Shown: piece after piece, positions 21,568-41,793 of the stretch
How the letters are laid out: every line of letters begins with the position of its first letter
Position numbering within the stretch: position 1 is the first letter of the stretch
Assembly: GCF_025612915.1 (NCBI RefSeq)
Contig: NC_069116.1
Location: 24,579,051 to 24,643,050 of the forward strand
Reading direction: 5' to 3'
Source: Crassostrea angulata
Taxonomy: Eukaryota
Length of the DNA stretch: 64,000 nucleotides
Program-made: the position numbers and the translations under genes
Notes under the pieces: model-generated
Database searches by the model: none
What the model was told of the DNA's origin: nothing
The model's input: only the letters and a program-made list of their open reading frames with translations

Positions 21568-21604
<37 letters not shown>

Positions 21605-22080
21605 GAACAATAGGTATGATAAAGTCAGCTTAATGGAGCCATAATACAAACAATCTGGACAATGTACATTGTTATACTTTCATGTTAAATACTGAAATCT
21701 GATTGGTTAAGACGCAGTTAATAATATTTCCTATTACCCTCAGCGTTAGCAACGCACTTAGCAACGGGTAACATTAAAAAATGTTACATGCACGAAAATT
21801 ATGCGCGTACGGTTCGCTGTAGAATTCACGTTATTCCTATATAAAAACAGTAAAATTTTCTTATAAATTAAGACATTCAGTATTACAAAATAAATGGTGC
21901 CGGTTTGGGAGGGTAACAGTTGAAATTGACACCCCAGGCACTATTTATATAATAATACATGTAGATCCTGTATAAATAAAATCCATTTTCCCCCTTGGAA
22001 CTCGGATAGCCCTGATTGCTGCCAATATTTACAAGAGCAGACTTTAATCACCGCTCCTGCACATATATAGGGACTCAAAG

Positions 22081-22837: not shown

Positions 22838-23991
22838 CCTGATTAGTTTCTGAGAAGAAGATTTTTAAAGATTTACTCTATATATATTCCTATGTAAAAC
22901 TTTAACACCCCCCCCCCCCCCCCATGTGGCCTCACCCTACCCCCAAGGGTCATGATTTTCACAACTTTGAATCTACACTACCTGAGGATACTTCCCACAA
23001 GTTTCAGCGTTCCTGGCTGATTAGTTTCTGAGAAGAAGATTTTTAAATATTTACTCTATATATTCCTATGTAAAACTTCGACCCCCCCACACCCCCATTG
23101 TGCCCCACCCTACCCCCAGGGATCATGATTTTCACAACTTTGAATCTACACTACCTGAGGATGCTTCCACACAAGTTTCAGCTTTCCTGGCTGATTAATT
23201 TCTGAGAAGAAGATTTTTAAAGATTTACTATATATATTCCTATGTAAAATTTTAACACCCTCCCCCCCAATGTGGCCTCACCCTACCCCCAGGGATCATG
23301 ATTTTCACAACTATGAATCTACACTACCTGAGGATGCCTCCACACAAGTTTCAGCTTTCCTGGCTGATTAGTTTCTGAGAAGAAGATTTTTAAAGGTTTA
23401 CTCTATATATTCCTTTGTAAAACTTCGACCCCCCATTGTGGCCCCACCCTACCCCCAGGGGTCATGATTTTCACAACTTTGAATCTACACTACCTGAGGA
23501 TGCCTTCACACAAATTTCAGCTTTGCTAGCTGATTAGTTTCTGAGAAGAAGATTTTTAAAGATTTACTCTATATATTCCTATGGTAAACGTCGACCCCCC
23601 ATTGTGGCCCCACCCTACCCCCGGGGGTCATGATTTTCACAACTTTGAATCTACACTACCTGAGGATGCTTCCACACAAGTTTCAGCTTTCCTGGCTGTT
23701 TAGTTTCTGAGAAGAAGATTTTTAAAGATTTACTCTATATATTCCTATGTAAAACTTCGACCCCCCATTGTGGCCCCACCCTACCCCCGGGGGTCATGAA
23801 TTTCACAACTTTGAATCTACACTACCTGAGGATGCTTCCACACAAGTTTCAGCTTTCCTGGCTTTCTGGTTCTTGAGAAGAAGATTTTTGAAAATTTCTC
23901 GAAATTTTTCATTAATTTCTAATTATCTCCCCTTGAAAACGGGTGTGGCCCTTAATTTTCACAACTTTGAATCCCCTTTGCCTAAGGATGA

Positions 23992-24023
<32 letters not shown>

Positions 24024-24045
24024 AGTTCTTGAGAAGATGTTGAAA
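22838..24045. repeat. Satellite-like tandem array, about 6.5 copies of a 165-180 bp unit.
   Basis: The unit ctgattagtttctgagaagaagatttttaaagatttactctatatattcctatgtaaaact…ccccattgtggccccaccctacccccaggg…catgattttcacaactttgaatctacactacctgaggatgcttccacacaagtttcagctttcctgg recurs at about 22841, 23023, 23190, 23353, 23529, 23700 and 23867. The spacing is close to one nucleosome. ORF 23768..24025 is an artefact of it. Confidence 0.85.
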
Positions 24046-24060
24046 ATGTGAAAAGTTTAC

Positions 24061-24104
24061 GGACAGACGGACGGACAGACGGACGGACATACGGACGACA
24101 GACA
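24061..24104. repeat. (GGACAGAC/GGACGGAC)n microsatellite.
   Basis: The sequence is ggacagacggacggacagacggacggacatacggacgacagac. A related stretch caaacggacggactgacggacgcag lies at 46782-46806. Confidence 0.8.
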
Positions 24105-24119
24105 AAATGTGATCAGAAT

Positions 24120-24156
<37 letters not shown>

Positions 24157-28181: not shown

Positions 28182-29470
28182 CTGAATGAAAGAGAAGAAA
28201 ATAATGCTACAGCAACAAGCTTTTCAAAGGACATTTTCATACAATGATCAATTGATCATCAATACACAGAGTAAGTTCTATAACTCATTTTTTTAAAATC
28301 ATATACAAGTACAATAACTGAATCATATTCAATTTGATTTAAAATTTTATATACCCAATTTAATGTTTCTTTCTATTTGTAGAATACTGACATTACATGC
28401 TATATTTATTTCATTAACTAATTTTGTACCAGGAGAAGCATACAAATCATATTTATAGACTAAATATCATGAATATAGTATATCATGTACATATATGTAA
28501 CAAAATCACGCGGGGGTGTTAAGGAAGCATATGGAATCTGAGTTACATGTAATTCCGTGAAATCACAAATCTTAGTTATTATGTACATATTCAAATATAT
28601 AAGCAACGAAACGTAGACCAAAAAACAAAGAAAAAATACTGAAGACAATTTTTGCCAGAAATTAGTTTGTATTACGTAGATTTACACATTGATGACGTCA
28701 TGACTAAAAGTTGAATGTCGTGTGAATTTGATCGGAAAGCATTGTAAACATATTCAAAATATAACTAATCTAAGAACTCTAATAAAGTATTGTGGTGTGA
28801 TTTATTGAGAATTGAACATAGGAATACTGGGGGAGATGTTAGTTTTATCAATCATTCGCTAAAAGGTATGTAAATTTGCTTTTATTTCTCGGCCAGGCTT
28901 TCCTCTGTCGTTGTTTACGATATAAAAATCCGACTAGAACAACACTACCCCGCGTATATTGAACTTGAAATTTTATACGTATCGTTAGTTTGATCAATGC
29001 TTAAATTGAAAAGTGCTGCTAGAATCCCATGCTGTGTGCTGTTTTAATGCAATTTGCCGTTTTCCGTGCAAACTTTATAAACGTTGGGAAGGTTTTATGA
29101 GAACCGGATGAATAACTTTTTAATAAGGAAAAACATAGGATTCTTGCAGCGGTTTTGATTAAACTGAGATGTTTTGCCTTCACTTGGTATGTTTATTTTA
29201 TTTTGGAAACCGCGGGGTAGTGTTGTTCTATCTCATTTTATGTTAAGGAATATACGTAAGCTATTTATAGTTGTCACGTGATAATGCACGAATGTGGCAG
29301 TGATGTACTACCCGATATTATTGCACTGACATCTATTTTAAAGGATAATACTAAGTTTTTGATCTTATTCAAAATAATTATTTAATTTCACGATTTTGAA
29401 TACAACAGTCAAAATAAGACGGCATATTGCCCATATGCTTCACACCCCCGCGCAAAAATGAAATTCATAC

Positions 29471-29547
29471 CTGTAAATTAGGTCCCCTGAAATATGTGAT
29501 ATATTCAGGTCCTTGATACACTGGTCTCGGAAGAACAATAGTGTGTA
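29471..29547 (-). CDS. TMX2: TMX2 exon 4 (77 nt), encoding LHTIVLPRPVYQGPEYITYFRGPNLQ.
   Basis: The acceptor is ttttgttttgtag|TA and the donor is TTTACAG|gtatga. It matches human [21 protein letters not shown]. Phase 1 in, phase 0 out. Confidence 0.8.
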
Positions 29548-29877
29548 CTACAAAACAAAAAAGTAAATAATAATGGCGATACAACATTTTCAAAAAATAA
29601 TTGCAAGGCTGAGTATAAATGTCTGATAGTCCAGCTCATTTTCAACTTCTATAGACTCTTATTCAATGGGAGTATTTTTCTCACCATTATGAAATAGTGT
29701 ATATGCAATGTAAATGTGACAACTTTTCAATTGACAAGTTAAAATTTTAGCTATGTTTAACCTTGATTTGTTGCTCAAAATGTGAAGGTACAGTGTACTT
29801 TTATTTTCCTTTCTTGGACACAGTTTAACATTTGTTGACATGCAATTATTAAAAATAATAGTTTTAAGTATACTTAC

Positions 29878-29991
29878 ACAAAACTGCAAGAAAATAAACT
29901 AATCCATAGATGGGGCTTGCTTTAAACAACATAACCCCATTCAAAAACTTAGCAAACATACAGGCAGTGTTGGCATAATCCAAGAACGCAG
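29878..29991 (-). CDS. TMX2: TMX2 exon 3 (114 nt), encoding SAFLDYANTACMFAKFLNGVMLFKASPIYGLVYFLAVL.
   Basis: The acceptor is cattttgcag|CT and the donor is GTTTTGT|gtaagt. It lies within the minus-strand ORF 29864..30070. It aligns to human TMX2 [43 protein letters not shown], the transmembrane region. The frame is continuous with exons 2 and 4. Confidence 0.8.
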
Positions 29992-30130
29992 CTGCAAAAT
30001 GAAAACTGTAGTAAAATATCAATTCTAAAAAAAAGATTTGTGATTTTAATAAATGATTAAAAATGAACATTAAGTTAATTTTAATGCCTGAAATTTATTC
30101 TTATATGATCAATAAATAATAAATACTTAC

Positions 30131-30191
30131 ACTGTCTGCGACCTTTTATCACTATAATGCACCCAAGAAATGTGATCCATTCCCATTCTTT
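30131..30191 (-). CDS. TMX2: TMX2 exon 2 (61 nt), encoding KEWEWITFLGCIIVIKGRRQ plus 1 nt.
   Basis: The acceptor is catttcag|AAAGAATGG and the donor is GACAGT|gtaagt. The exon starts in phase 0 and ends in phase 1. It matches the human TMX2 segment [21 protein letters not shown]. Confidence 0.75.
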
Positions 30192-30619
30192 CTGAAATGC
30201 CATTTCAAAAGGACTATTAATGCACTTAATTTTATATAGTCTTTTAATCATGTAGCTTATAACATAAATTCAAAAAAGGCATGTTTAATTCTTTATTAAA
30301 CCTCTGTAATCATTGATATCAATTATTGTTGTAGTTTAGAAACTTTTTTCAGATTTGAGCTTTTTAGAGGTCAATCCAATATGTTTATTCATAAATTTTA
30401 TACATGTATCAAATACTTTGGATAAGACAAATGTTATAATTCAGTAATTGCAAATCATTTTTGCCACCATTGACTCTGATTAGGGTACACAATAAACGTC
30501 TATTGTTGTACAATGTTATTAAATTTCAATTCTTGTTGACATATTGGATAAAACAGACGCCAAGTAGAGCGTCTTAATCAAGCCTCGAGGCATCAGCTGT
30601 TAGAAAGTTATTTTCTTAC

Positions 30620-30760
30620 CAATTCGAGAAAGCAATCATCAAAGAGGTATTCACAAATCGGACGATTGACCTTCAGAATATAGTATGTTAAAGAAAGAAG
30701 TACATTGGTCACCAAATGTAAGCTTAAAACATCTTTGATTTCGGCAATTAACTTAGACAT
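30620..30760 (-). CDS. TMX2: TMX2 (thioredoxin-related transmembrane protein 2) exon 1, carrying the start codon. It encodes MSKLIAEIKDVLSLHLVTNVLLSLTYYILKVNRPICEYLFDDCFLEL.
   Basis: The ATG is at 30760-30758 on the minus strand. The 141-nt ORF ends at donor GAATTG|gtaag. It aligns to the human TMX2 N-terminus (…PYYLLSALL…PPLCHGL…PCDFDWRE). The next exon continues KEWEWITFLGCIIVIKGRRQ, which matches [22 protein letters not shown]. Confidence 0.65.
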
Positions 30761-31081
30761 TTCGTTGACTCGTCTGTCCTCAAGTTTAATTTATCCGGAA
30801 GTTGATAGTAAGTTGTTCTAGTTCGTATTCGTTTATTGGCGAGGTATCACTTGACTATTATAGATACCAATAGAAGTAATACAAAAATATGTTTTGATAT
30901 AGCCTAAAACCCAACTAAAAATAAGAGCGCCAAGTTTCGGGAGCAAGAGTCTTCGCAAATCAAGACTACATTATATCCGAATCAAAAATCTTCCGACTAC
31001 TTTTGAAATGAAAATGAAAGTAGCAAGGGGTATGGAACATGTTTTGATGTAACATTATGGATTCTCTGTATTTGTGAGCTA
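30761..31081. promoter_or_regulatory. Putative bidirectional promoter between head-to-head TMX2 (-) and DPH4 (+).
   Basis: The two start codons lie 321 bp apart on opposite strands. No other ORF or exon is detectable between them. This is inferred from gene arrangement only. Confidence 0.4.
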
Positions 31082-31522
31082 ATGGAAAACTTATACAGTA
31101 TTTTGGGCTGCGAGGAATCGGCAACATGTGAAGAAATAAAAAAATGTTATCAGAAGCTTGCATTAAAGACTCACCCAGACAAAGTTGCTTCTCAAAGTAG
31201 GGAAAAGTTGTCGGATGCTAATGACGAATTTGCTAAGATTAGTTTTGCTTGGAAAATTTTAGGCGATGAAGACTTAAGAAACCAGTACGACATAAAGTGG
31301 AAACAAAGATGCATATCACAAGACTGGCCAATTCAAGATGACATTGAAATCGAAGAGTTCGAGATATGTGATACACCCGACTGTGATGATCATGTTTACA
31401 CTTACCCATGTAGATGTGGCGGATTGTATGCACTCTCGGAGACTGATGTTCAAATTAAATTCGACATCGTGTGTTGTGACACATGTTCTCTAAGTGTTCG
31501 GATTTTGTATAATACCAATTAA
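31082..31522 (+). CDS. DNAJC24: DPH4 / DNAJC24-type protein: an N-terminal J domain fused to a CSL-type (DPH-type) zinc finger. It is 146 aa and has no intron.
   Basis: The ORF is intact at 31082..31522. It contains YSILGCEE…KKCYQKLALKTHPDK (HPD motif of the J domain) and AWKILGDEDLRNQYD. It also contains CRCGGLY…CDTCSL (CSL zinc finger). This is collinear with human DNAJC24 (WYSILG…MYHPDK…AWKILGNEETKREYD…CRCGGKY…CDTCSL…LLHYN). A Kozak-like gctaATGG precedes it and an AATAAA follows at 31544-31549. Confidence 0.9.
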   Translation: MENLYSILGCEESATCEEIKKCYQKLALKTHPDKVASQSREKLSDANDEFAKISFAWKILGDEDLRNQYDIKWKQRCISQDWPIQDDIEIEEFEICDTPDCDDHVYTYPCRCGGLYALSETDVQIKFDIVCCDTCSLSVRILYNTN

Positions 31523-31543
31523 TGTAAATGTGAATAGAATATA

Positions 31544-31549
31544 AATAAA
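31544..31549 (+). terminator. AATAAA polyadenylation signal for DPH4.
   Basis: The hexamer sits 22 nt after the DPH4 stop codon. Confidence 0.5.
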
Positions 31550-31597
31550 AAGATTAACCAAAGAAAGTATTGATGATTATATTTCCTTGTACATTTG

Positions 31598-31617
31598 CCC
31601 CCCCCCCCCTCCCCAGC

Positions 31618-31686
<69 letters not shown>
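31598..31686. repeat. Poly-C tract followed by a (CT)31 microsatellite, immediately 3' of DPH4.
   Basis: Direct reading. ORFs 31554..31763(-) and 31570..31899(+), the RERERE/LSLSLS reads, are artefacts. Confidence 0.95.
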
Positions 31687-31688
<2 letters not shown>

Positions 31689-31904
31689 AATCATATTGTA
31701 TTTACAGAATACATTTATGATATCAGTAAATGAGGAAATTCTGCTAAATTTGATTGTATACAAGAGAAAAATCTTTGGGATCGTTTGTTTTTACAATTAT
31801 CAGGACAGGCACGTATGCACGTACAATAAAGCATCGGGGCGGGAAAGGAGTGGCAGCCCACATCCCCACTTTTTGTCGAATCAAATATTGTTGAATTAAT
31901 GATA

Positions 31905-32640
31905 ATAATTAATAATTTAATTCTGATTGTAACGCCTCATTTGATTGGCTAAACAAATTCATATATATCGTATAACATAACTTGCCTACGTCACAATAAG
32001 ACGTGCGAGCGAAACGTATTAATTCGCTTGACGTTACGTTTACATTTTGTACAAATTAACATATTTTAACTAACTAAGGGGCCTTATTATCTAATTTAAA
32101 TAGTAGAAAAATAAATGATAAGGAATAAATTTAATTTCTACCTACGTTATATGAGTATAACATAACTTGGAACAGTTTACGCTTTTTTATAAACCGCTTC
32201 GCGGTTTATAAAGTGTAAACTGCCCCAAGTTATGTTATATCGTATAACATAGGTAGAAATTTAATTCATTCCTTAAATAATTTAATTCTGGTTGTAACGC
32301 GCATTCTGATTGGCTAAAAATTATTTTATATCGTATAAAGAATGTTGCCTACGTCATAGTAAGACTTACGTCAAAAACGTATTAATACGCCTGACCTTAC
32401 GTTTGAATTTTGTACAATTTAACGTCATTTTAAAGGTCAAATGACCGTTTTTATTAAGGGATGAATTCAATATTTATTTGTTTTATACGATATAAAATGG
32501 TTTGGGACAGTTTACGCTTTATAAACTCTCTTTACGCTTTTTTATAAACCACTTTGCAGTTTATAAAGCGTAAACTGTCCCAAACCATTTTATATCGTAT
32601 AAAACAGATAAATATTGAATTCATTCCTTAAATTATAGTA
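31905..32640. repeat. Tandemly duplicated module of about 370 bp. Each copy is a ~155 bp direct-repeat unit (31905-32060 and 32275-32430) followed by a ~150-180 bp near-perfect palindrome (32122-32272 and 32458-32640).
   Basis: The A units share aataatttaattctgRttgtaacgc…tgattggctaaa…tatatcgtataa…gcctacgtca…acgtattaat.cgc.tgac.ttacgtttRaattttgtacaa. Each palindrome's arms are reverse complements around a central tttacgcttttttataaacc core. Confidence 0.75.
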
Positions 32641-35704: not shown

Positions 35705-37597
35705 ATGGACAATTTACTTCCAACTTGCTCTGTTTAATTATTATTGATTTCAATATTATCTGTTTGCCTTAATCACCGATTTAAATATATTAATTAATTT
35801 TTTTAAAAATCAAATTAGATATGGATCGTTTTATAAATTATTTACAAACTTAACAATTGTCAGCTTGTATTTTCAAACAAGACGCCCATGGGCCACATCG
35901 CTCACTTGAACAATAGTTCTTGTATCATTCCGTTTTGAAAATTTTAATTAGATATGAAACTTGTTAAAATATTGTAGAACTCCTAGATTTGACAATACAT
36001 TAAATAAAGGAATCCTACTTTTTTGACATCATAAGCTACGGTTCGTTATTTTGTTTTTGGTTCGATTCAATTAAACATATATCAGCGTTAATATTTCTCA
36101 TTGTAAATAGAAAAACTTATCTTTAACTTGTACATATAGATTCTTTTACTTAAGAATAACAAAAAAAAAAATGTTATGTATTCTTTTCAAATTAATTATT
36201 TAGAGGATGAAAAACTTGCAGGAAACATGGAAAAACTTGTTGGCAAAACTGTACACAAAGAATACTTGATGACATTATTGGTTTACATGCTAATACAGTA
36301 ACTAAAAACGATTTCGAAAATAATTTGAAAAAGTATTTCAAATATAAATTTATCAGAGACATTAAGAAAAAAGAAATGGAAAATTGCCATTCTATAGGTA
36401 ATTATTAATTACACAAAATCTAAAAACAAGCTTGAAATTAAAACATGCTTAAATTTTTCCATTTCCAAGAAGCTTCTTTTTTTTTTTACTCAATTAGGAA
36501 TAAGTGCCCAAAAAATTACAGACAGAGGTTGTCAGATATCGTAACCTTATTATTCCAAGGGATAAAAGATATTGTATCAATTTTTATACTGTAGATGAAA
36601 ATTAACATCATTTACAACTACGAAGTGAATATTGTTCAGTTTTCACTTTTTAAAAACGCATGCATTTCTTATAAAATTCTTAAACAACAAGAATGAACAA
36701 AAGAAAATGTATGTACTGACTATATCTGTAACTATTGTCTGTATCATCAGGTCTCATTGACCCTCTGATATAATTTTTATTATATATAATTTTACTGTAA
36801 TATATCATTTCTAAAACTTATTAAAAAACAGTTCTTTTTGTTGAAATGCTTTTTACTACATTTCTCGACTAAGTCCCTGTTTAACTTGTGTCAAGCGTTA
36901 ACAATATTCAATAAATTATACACGTTAAGAAGTTAGGTACATATTAACACCATTCGATGCCACGAGGAACTTTGGGTGATTTACTAACAAATAACTTTTA
37001 CGTAATCACATGAAATTCAATTAAGAAAGCTTTTTGATGCCCCCTTTACTCAATTACTGTTCGGATAACGGATTAGTGCTGCTTTTGTTTAGTCCACGCT
37101 ATACCCTCCCCCCTTTCGGGTATGAGGTCCCCGACAGGGAAATTAGTGTGTCTTCTTTTTAACTTTAATATTGTATACCTATCGGTATACCTTGCCTTGA
37201 CCATGAGGAATTTTTGTATCAAAGCCCAGCGCGTCACTTTTTCTGGACGCTTCCTCAATAACAGACGTATTCTTAATATCTCAACTTTTGGTCATATTTT
37301 ACAGGTCATCGTTAATTATAAATTTCACCCCCCAATTCCAATATGACGAGTTGGTGAATGTCTCCTCAAAAATCCCAATGAAGAGCAGACCAATAAACTA
37401 CATGTACAGTACCAATAACAACGTTATTTTTACAAGATAAACGATAGGATAGGATTCACGCACGATATGATAGGATTAACGCACGATAGGATAGGATTAA
37501 CGCACGGTAGAACAGCATACACGCACGATAGGAAAGGATAATTAAACGATGTTCATGATAAACGTATAATCGCTTTTCACGATCTTCACAAATAAAC

Positions 37598-41149: not shown

Positions 41150-41793
41150 TTGGCAGAAATTCACAACGTGACAGATGCTGCACTTTTAACAATTGGATGC
41201 AGTTTAGAAGGCCAAGCTGAAACCTGGCTACAGACATTGTCACCAAAACAGAGAAACAACTTAACGGAGTTTAAAGAGTGCCTGAAAAACAGATTCGCCC
41301 CTCAGGAAACAAACTTTACCCTCTTGTCCATAAGACAAGAAGCAGGGGAAACCACTGATGTTTACTTGTATAGGGCAGAAAAACCGCCCTTGGCAATGAT
41401 TTTCCAAAAATATGCAAAGTCCCATTCGCCACCCAATGACTGGAAAACCAGGAGAATGCAAAAGTGATATCAAAAGAGCCTAAAAAATTTCAGGAACTAT
41501 GCCATGCAGTGTCCCTAGCTAAAGCATTACTAAAATGCAACACCAGAGAAGATATGAACAATTTAACTCTGGTAGCATTAGCTGCTCAGCTGAAGGACCC
41601 CTTGAAAGCTGAAATGAGTGCTTTAACACAGAGTAATTTGCGAATCAAAGAACGGTCAGCCAGAACCATGGAACACAACCCCACCACCCGGATACAGTAT
41701 GCCAAACAAACTTTGCCCTTCCACCTTCCTCTTACTAACAGTAGCCCCCAGTGTAACCCCAGGTCCAGCCCTCAGCACAGCAGTGGCCCTTAG
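41150..41793 (+). pseudogene. Retrotransposon gag, spanning two ORFs joined by a frameshift.
   Basis: ORFs 41150..41467 and 41464..41793. A degenerate zinc-knuckle-like CEGCGKLYLPC lies at about 41820-41860. Confidence 0.6.

Follow-up and report, generated by a model that had tools for sequence, protein, structure and literature searches.

Downstream of the DPH4 gene we find two non-coding repeat units, each made of a 5' module followed by a long 3' palindrome. We consider it probable that positions 31912 to 32636 of the 64-kb stretch of DNA analyzed here (the window) hold two head-to-tail copies of a repeat of about 365 bp that duplicated in place, and that one palindrome arm of the second copy was converted later. 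Judging from its recurrence at other loci, the repeat is a member of a dispersed, non-coding, mobile-element-like family.

The window as a whole has about 33 % G+C, contains microsatellites and few ORFs and is eukaryotic in character, and tRNA and Rfam scans of it returned no matches. DPH4 (DNAJC24-type) is identified from a 146-aa coding ORF at 31082-31522 on the + strand through the ORF list, Pfam and spliced transcript contigs. The product carries DnaJ and CSL zinc finger domains and its best named relatives are the DPH4 proteins of molluscs (bivalves, gastropods and Octopus) at about 50 % identity, while the transcript contigs are spliced, with 28319-28508 joined to 29453 onward. The repeat pair starts 389 bp downstream of the DPH4 stop codon. 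All DPH4 contigs from the same species (23/23) end at the stop codon or at most about 125 nt past it, at a poly-C/(CT)n tract; this poly-C/(CT)31 tract is located at about 31600-31686.

Self-BLAST found two direct units at 31911-32281 and 32276-32636, and repeat finding, alignments and nhmmer place their limits at 31912-32276 (unit 1, U1) and 32277-32636 (unit 2, U2), both on the + strand like all parts described below. The two units are joined head to tail with no intervening base, so that the array consists of exactly 2.0 units. BLAST gives 72 % identity between them and a gapped global alignment 80 %, with 77 % identity in the 5' module (module A) and 79 % in the palindrome; nhmmer recovers U1 at E = 1e-42 for module A and E = 1e-55 for the palindrome. 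Repeat finding, self-BLAST and global alignment therefore confirm the first-pass annotation, made from the letters of the DNA and its ORFs, in describing a tandemly duplicated unit-plus-hairpin 3' of DPH4.

Each unit contains a conserved module A of about 160 bp, then a unit-specific spacer, then a palindrome of 158-178 bp. In U1, module A (31912-32071; alignments, nhmmer) opens with the family 5' end ATAATTTAAT and is followed by a 47-bp spacer (32072-32118) homologous to the spacers of three family copies described below (L042, L027 and L057a; alignment columns about 262-320) and by palindrome 1 (32119-32276), with arms at 32119-32197 and 32200-32276. In U2, module A' (32277-32439; alignments, nhmmer) is followed by a spacer shortened to 14 bp (32440-32453), seen as gap columns in the alignment, and by palindrome 2, whose 5' arm lies at 32454-32527 and whose 3' arm, delimited by repeat finding, folding and alignment, lies at 32558-32631. 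The apparent 3' terminus of the element, TTAAATTAT, is at 32628-32636 by alignment and resembles the end of L057a. The first-pass annotation had A units of 155 bp directly before the palindromes; the two spacers stand in between.

The pair has no coding content that we can recognize, as first proposed, with ORFs of at most 44 aa that have no relatives by protein search. Alignments of the array flanks to the units score no better than shuffles and contain no remnants of further units, and self-BLAST and nhmmer find no further copy elsewhere in the 64-kb window. We also considered a larger enclosing element with inverted-repeat flanks and rejected it, the flank-to-flank matches, such as ACAGGCACGTA at 31805 and 32882, reaching only E >= 1.

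Both palindromes form long hairpins. The arms of palindrome 1 match at 68 of 75 positions (91 %) plus indels around a centre CCGCTTCGCGG at 32194-32204, and those of palindrome 2 match at 72 of 74 positions (97 %) with 30 nt between the arms. Folded as RNA, palindrome 1 reaches -89.6 kcal/mol (z -15.6) and palindrome 2 reaches -108.5 kcal/mol (z -23.3), with none of 200 shuffles as good in either case; folded as DNA the values are -55.7 and -72.6 kcal/mol. The folding check suggested at first pass thus gives hairpins far better than shuffles for both palindromes, and alignment of the arms bears out the claim that the two are homologous to each other. The hairpins had been described as near-perfect with stems of 65-70 bp: long hairpins they are, but with stems of about 74-80 bp. 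Module A folds with a z-score of -1.65, which is no significant structure.

Copies at other loci were searched for by scanning metagenome contigs with a 20-nt palindrome-core pattern conserved between U1 and U2, followed by BLAST against the module. Three contigs have extended similarity, L042 (OCZB010078657.1), L027 (OBLZ010037257.1) and L057 (OBLZ010039963.1), which between them add four copies of 67-89 % identity, arranged like the units here as module A, spacer and palindrome. The L042 copy has a full 5' end and a palindrome cut by the contig end, the L027 copy has a full module A and a rearranged palindrome, and L057 has two partial copies only 1 kb apart, one without the first ~100 bp of A (L057a) and one consisting of A without the palindrome (L057b). 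The family sample is therefore six copies at four loci, the four outside copies coming from metagenome contigs of evidently related organisms. L027 also has a second, different repeat in common with the window (at 23920-24132), and since it carries another repeat family of the window we take the contigs to derive from a related genome. With nhmmer profiles every copy is found again, at E = 1e-40 to 1e-55, and the window yields nothing further.

The copies range from 360 to 465 bp in length and have sharp ends. Five of them share their first base and open with AT(A/G)ATTTAAT directly behind unrelated sequence, and the 3' ends of U2 and L057a are alike (CCTTAAA(AA)TTATA). The flanks show no relation among the copies or to the DPH4 locus. 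The common sharp ends, the unrelated contexts and the truncated copies suggest that the family was mobile. This recurrence at unrelated loci supports the mobile-element reading of the first-pass annotation in general, as a non-autonomous mobile element, and with four further copies on three contigs the unit is not unique; a unique unit would have spoken against that reading. Neither an empty site nor a target-site duplication nor an autonomous partner of the family turned up.

Other searches did not extend the family. Scans of viral and prokaryotic genome collections gave nothing or chance matches only, and a match in a Priestia genome (L090), considered as a family copy, proved to be a chance pattern artefact. 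Exact look-ups and a protein search with the spurious ORFs of the module yielded no more copies or transcripts, and literature searched by sequence string or accession contained nothing relevant to the repeat. The ORFs of the metagenome contigs, scanned with Pfam, offered no hint of their taxonomy. A DPH4 contig from a related species (L106), with a coding sequence 74 % identical, includes 527 bp of 3' flank; this flank is unalignable and has no family member, which gives a slight hint that the insertion near DPH4 may be lineage-specific.

How did two units come to lie side by side? By raw identities U1 and U2 do not look like closest relatives, with U2 and L027 79 % identical in module A and U1 and L042 85 % identical in the palindrome. 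That reading is overturned by the informative sites of module A, ten of which join U1 and U2 against L042 and L027 while none supports either other split, and by the state of the 5' palindrome arm of U2, which appears to be overwritten. Because of this overwritten arm, the palindrome similarity of U1 to L042 is inflated relative to that of U1 to U2. The 10:0 sites also favour the tandem duplication claimed at first pass. Combined with the exact head-to-tail junction, they make the insertion of one element followed by an old duplication in situ the simplest account: a single element probably landed some 390 bp downstream of DPH4 and later gave rise to a tandem duplicate in place, after which the copies would have diverged to about 77-80 % identity. 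Equally well, U1 and U2 could group together because they belong to a species-specific subfamily of which two members inserted side by side, and it is possible that U1 and U2 inserted as one concatemer.

An alternative that we find unlikely is that two already diverged members of the family inserted independently, exactly end to end. The divergence between U1 and U2 (77 % identity in A, 79 % in the palindrome) does equal that to other loci, and the two partial copies of L057, 1 kb apart, suggest that copies can cluster. This alternative is opposed by the ten informative sites against none, by the inflated likeness of the U1 and L042 palindromes and by the junction itself, which would need an insertion at precisely the element end in a family with no evident target preference. 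We give almost no credence to an assembly artefact, whether from haplotypes that were collapsed or falsely duplicated or from a chimeric read with a palindrome. Assemblers are known to have trouble with palindromes and tandem duplications, but the units differ by 20-28 %, far above haplotype divergence, the arms contain mismatches and indels, and the architecture recurs in independently assembled contigs of other data sets. A collapsed assembly, which would have undermined the first-pass reading, is thus very improbable.

Between copies, the 5' arms of the palindrome are 84-88 % alike. Within a copy, the 5' and 3' arms are 74-84 % alike in U1, L042 and L057a and 97-98 % alike in U2. From this comparison the family palindrome is ancestrally imperfect, with fixed arm differences apparently inherited by copies at different loci. 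The arm-specific states are, for the 5' arm, a TTT bulge and GGAACAG where the 3' arm has GGG(G/A)CAG, and, for the 3' arm, ACGA. U1 keeps the asymmetries of the family (the TTT bulge, and GGAACAG versus GGGGCAG).

At each position that separates all other 5' arms from all 3' arms (the TTT bulge, the ACGA- motif and the A/G site), the 5' arm of U2 has the 3'-arm state, and it reads as an inverted copy of its partner, the 3' arm of U2. Of the old 5' arm, the inner 22 nt (TTT included) persist at 32531-32552 in the apical loop of palindrome 2 (TTTACGCTTTTTTATAAACCAC); sequence and alignments identify this relic as the "20-nt insertion" of the alignment between U1 and U2. Relative to the other copies, the U2 spacer has lost about 27-28 nt, and the gap lies beside the new arm. 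The 3' states in the 5' arm, the relic and the spacer loss together lead us to attribute the near-perfect second hairpin to one arm-copying event. We propose that in a single event at the DNA level the 3' arm of U2 was copied, inverted, over most of the 5' arm and part of the spacer. The mechanism would be of the kind known as intra-strand template switching (quasi-palindrome correction), in replication or repair. An ATAAC patch of U1, altered identically on both arms, may be a smaller case of the same process. With 2 mismatches in 74 positions compared to about 20 % unit divergence, the arm conversion is placed later than the duplication, and assuming neutral decay it would be much younger.

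Template switching at quasi-palindromes is a documented mechanism for clustered changes that equalize arms (PMC8794818, PMC5453318, PMC3820800). The changes described here resemble such correction in that they are clustered and equalize the arms, and in that an inverted arm copy lies beside a relic in U2 (PMC8794818, PMC5453318, PMC3820800, PMC13334657). The palindrome of L027, with its triple core resembling an inverted triplication, likewise looks like a product of quasi-palindrome correction. Unlike the short switches described, the U2 tract is about 74 nt long, and unlike observed switches, the U2 event is read from paralogous copies only. The arm conversion in U2 and the triple-core rearrangement in L027 agree with the first-pass view of the hairpins as recombinogenic, and the palindromes are likely fragile and prone to rearrangement.

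The family is most likely a relic of a non-autonomous DNA transposon, of unclassified superfamily. As far as the copies allow, its layout is unusual, a unique 5' module plus a 3' palindrome of 160-180 bp, and falls outside the definitions of Helitrons, HINEs and classical MITEs. In size and dispersal the family is like a MITE (<600 bp, non-coding, multi-copy), with six copies of 360-465 bp at four unrelated loci. It resembles palindromic long-arm MITEs and foldback-type transposons in being small (~365-465 bp), AT-rich, non-coding and dispersed with a long stable hairpin, and, like palindromic MITEs, it often lies near genes. Unlike palindromic MITEs, it has its palindrome only in the 3' half, after a unique 160-bp module.

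The label of foldback element given at first pass does not hold for the same reason, namely that only the 3' half is palindromic. In foldback elements the arms make up about the whole element, and here they make up the 3' 45-50 % while the 5' 160-200 bp are unique and unstructured. A satellite or tandem array is not the norm of the family either, with 2.0 units at this locus and single or truncated copies at the others. There is no abutting direct repeat that could be a target-site duplication around the array or L027 (intact ends being few and flanks AT-rich).

Terminal inverted repeats were considered as well. The U2 5' sequence ATAATTTAA and the 3' sequence TTAAATTAT are reverse complements at 9 of 9 positions, and 140 of 1000 shuffles reach an equal score in such AT-rich sequence. 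L042 and L027 have 10-13-nt inverted matches to the 5' end just before the palindrome, the best being 12 of 13 in L027, and 197-749 of 1000 shuffled ends are as good. Since shuffled AT-rich ends match in 14-75 % of trials, we do not count these inverted matches as evidence.

It is conceivable, if doubtful, that the family is a rolling-circle element (Helitron/Helentron, or HINE/DINE-1/pearl-like) in which the palindrome is the terminator and the pair of units a read-through concatemer. Like canonical non-autonomous Helitrons, the family has asymmetric ends with a hairpin near the 3' end, no detectable target-site duplication and an occasional head-to-tail array. The inner unit, U1, stops about 6 nt short of the end reached by U2 and L057a (CCTTAA compared to CCTTAAATTATA), and the literature notes tandem Helitrons whose inner copies are 3'-truncated (PMC7492417). 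The inverted 5'-end matches before the palindromes of L027 and L042 are also similar to subTIRs, which in Helentron-associated elements would measure 12-15 bp, the 3' one upstream of the palindrome.

By published criteria for Helitrons and Helentrons (PMC4067079), the label given at first pass is not supported. Canonical Helitrons have 5' TC, 3' CTRR, a 16-20-nt palindrome about 11 bp from the 3' end and insertion at A^T (PMC4067079). The five copies that begin AT(A/G)ATTTAAT have no 5' TC (the 5' end reads ATAATT), and in U1, U2 and L057a the 3' ends read ...CATTCCTTAA(ATTATA), with CCTTAA(ATTAT) in place of CTRR. Here the palindrome measures 158-178 nt, has 74-80-bp stems and lies 0-7 nt from the end, so that the hairpin is about ten times too long for a Helitron and reaches the terminus. 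On the 5' side the bases next to the copies are A, A, G, T and A, and on the 3' side, where only two ends are available, A and A; they show no duplication and, for the few ends at hand, fit neither an A^T site nor a T-rich target. The window has no Rep/helicase ORF.

The HINE/DINE-1/pearl group also offers a parallel. These mollusc and insect elements (DTC84, Cg_HINE) are modular and non-coding with a 3' palindrome and no clear target-site duplication (PMC4067079, PMC7492417, PMC3879986), and in bivalves HINE/pearl elements carry units in tandem whose junctions are each marked by a palindrome (PMC3879986, PMC7492417), which also speaks for a rolling-circle origin of the pair. On the features given for HINE and pearl (PMC7492417, PMC3879986) the match fails. 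Their palindromes are of 5-12 bp and their units of about 160 bp, compared to palindromes of 160-180 bp here; a short HINE palindrome (5-10 bp, 8-35 bp from the 3' end) is not what the 74-80-bp stems represent. In HINE/pearl, conserved flanking modules with 11-15-bp subTIRs plus a microsatellite enclose the repeats, and insertion is into T-rich or TT targets. In the present family it is the repeated unit that is dispersed, with unrelated flanks that lack similarity at the four loci and are not T-rich; the subTIR-like matches are at chance, and neither a microsatellite nor a conserved module on the left or right encloses the units. A (CT)n tract at 31624-31686 does lie 225 bp from the repeat pair and is not found at other family loci. 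We considered the two units as core repeats of a pearl/HINE element with this tract as its microsatellite and rejected that reading because the flanks are not shared with other loci.

We return to the proposed transposon relic and to the motifs of its module A. TGATTGGCTAAA is present in both units (31942-31953 and 32307-32318) and ACGTATTAAT is common to both modules. Module A of U1 also holds TACGTCA and TGACGTTACG, and module A' of U2 holds CTGATTGGCTAAAA at 32306-32319. The content of the module comprises CCAAT/NF-Y-like sequence, three CRE-like ACGT sites and a TATA-like TTTAAAT, and its best-conserved blocks across copies are TGATTGGCTAA and TTGCCTACGTCA. The first-pass annotation had listed an inverted CCAAT, a TGACGT and a third motif for the A units; the inverted CCAAT and the third motif are in both, but TGACGT is on the + strand in U1 only and on the reverse strand only in U2. 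On the alignment of copies, these CCAAT-, CRE- and TATA-like blocks are conserved sequence of the family. The simplest reading is that they are cis sequence from the parent element, for example a terminal promoter or a protein-binding region.

These motifs next to a stable hairpin raise the idea of a functional cassette, in which module A is a promoter and the palindrome yields a hairpin RNA that is processed to siRNA or miRNA, or in which the whole is a regulatory element for DPH4 or a neighbour. The order and spacing of motif block and hairpin are constant across copies, with TGATTGGCTAA and TTGCCTACGTCA best conserved, and the RNA stability of the hairpins is extreme. RNAalifold reports double-sided changes at 8 of 50 stem pairs among four copies, and in L042 the A end of the copy is separated by 21 bp from a putative first exon of the other strand. 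We nevertheless regard such a cassette as very unlikely. Three of four copies have decayed stems (74-84 %), the family occurs in unrelated genomic contexts and the 527 bp downstream of DPH4 in the related species hold no member. The double-sided changes are clustered and in U2 belong to one arm-copying event with footprints; arm copying explains the 8 of 50 pairs, so no selection on RNA structure is needed.

Comparison to Rfam points the same way. At the gathering score there is no match, and a permissive search gives only sub-threshold matches, driven by structure and found on both strands, to plant miRNA families derived from MITEs; the best of them scores 60 bits versus a threshold of 110. 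Stowaway-type MITEs gave rise to the plant MIR1120/1122 hairpins. The sub-threshold MIR1120 score is the same on both strands, which indicates that these are generic hairpin scores, and such generic-looking matches weigh against a cassette. Nothing points to a host function, and on present evidence the locus is best described as a repeat relic.

A more speculative idea, to which we assign a poor chance, is that the family is a self-contained promoter-plus-hairpin cassette, or an element whose 3' palindrome serves as a single-strand origin or terminator. If the former were true, module A would drive transcription into the palindrome and small RNAs from the hairpin could, for example, silence the autonomous parent. 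If the latter were true, the family would represent a new lineage of rolling-circle or hairpin-primed mobile DNA in molluscs.

Reading the locus as a repeat relic removes a false lead, in that the duplicated hairpins by DPH4 would be repeat-family DNA and not an RNA gene or a regulatory device. U2 provides a clean natural case of an imperfect palindrome that appears to have been perfected in one step with a relic of the old arm retained, and it illustrates that seeming compensatory evolution of a stem can arise without selection on RNA structure. Long palindromes near the 3' end of a gene are potential fragile or recombinogenic sites. The odd layout of the family may merit curation once copies have been collected genome-wide.

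The unstructured 5' part of each unit, module A, holds a third copy of the palindrome-arm motif with the core TATATCGTATAA. In U1 this copy lies at 31964-31979 and matches 32236-32251 in the 3' arm; in U2 the corresponding positions are 32323-32339 and 32587-32603. Each module A copy is identical to the 3' arm of its own unit over 16-17 nt and includes the flanking bases that are specific to that unit. Module A may have been derived from an arm, or the motif may reflect micro-conversion inside one unit.

Upstream of U1, transcript contigs of DPH4 (window 28319-31616) reveal splicing that joins approximately 28319-28508 to 29453. A leader of 1.6 kb precedes the 441-nt CDS, which occupies the extreme end of an exon of about 2.1 kb. 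Some alleles or relatives encode an N-terminally extended DPH4 form of 170 aa (proteins P0016-P0018). The tract at 31601-31686, 80 bp past the stop codon, consists of a poly-C run and then a perfect (CT)31 microsatellite. All short-read DPH4 contigs end at this tract, and one of them, L004, runs on into unrelated sequence.

Elsewhere in the window, an ORF at 41150-41793 is retrotransposon gag-like (PF03732, E = 2.6e-6) and lies within a G+C-richer block at 40-48 kb together with several unannotated ORFs reaching about 45400; this region is probably an LTR-retrotransposon remnant. A direct repeat of about 45 bp (35875-35916 and 21569-21613, 89 % identity) is otherwise unexplained. A second, distinct interspersed repeat at 23920-24132, within the locally G+C-richer 22-24 kb block, is shared at 73-80 % identity with positions 26-346 of metagenome contig L027 (OBLZ010037257.1).

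The same contig carries, at 2132-2355, a copy of the U1/U2 family with a rearranged palindrome containing three CGCTTCGCG cores in an arrangement resembling an inverted triplication. This three-core structure would fit template switching at the palindrome during replication. Within 1093-1290 of a second metagenome contig, L042 (OCZB010078657.1), the strand opposite the element holds an ORF of 55 aa whose ATG is 21 bp away from the element's 5' end. This ORF terminates at a donor-like GTAAAG and is possibly a first exon; the CCAAT motif of the element would fall about 65 nt upstream of its ATG.
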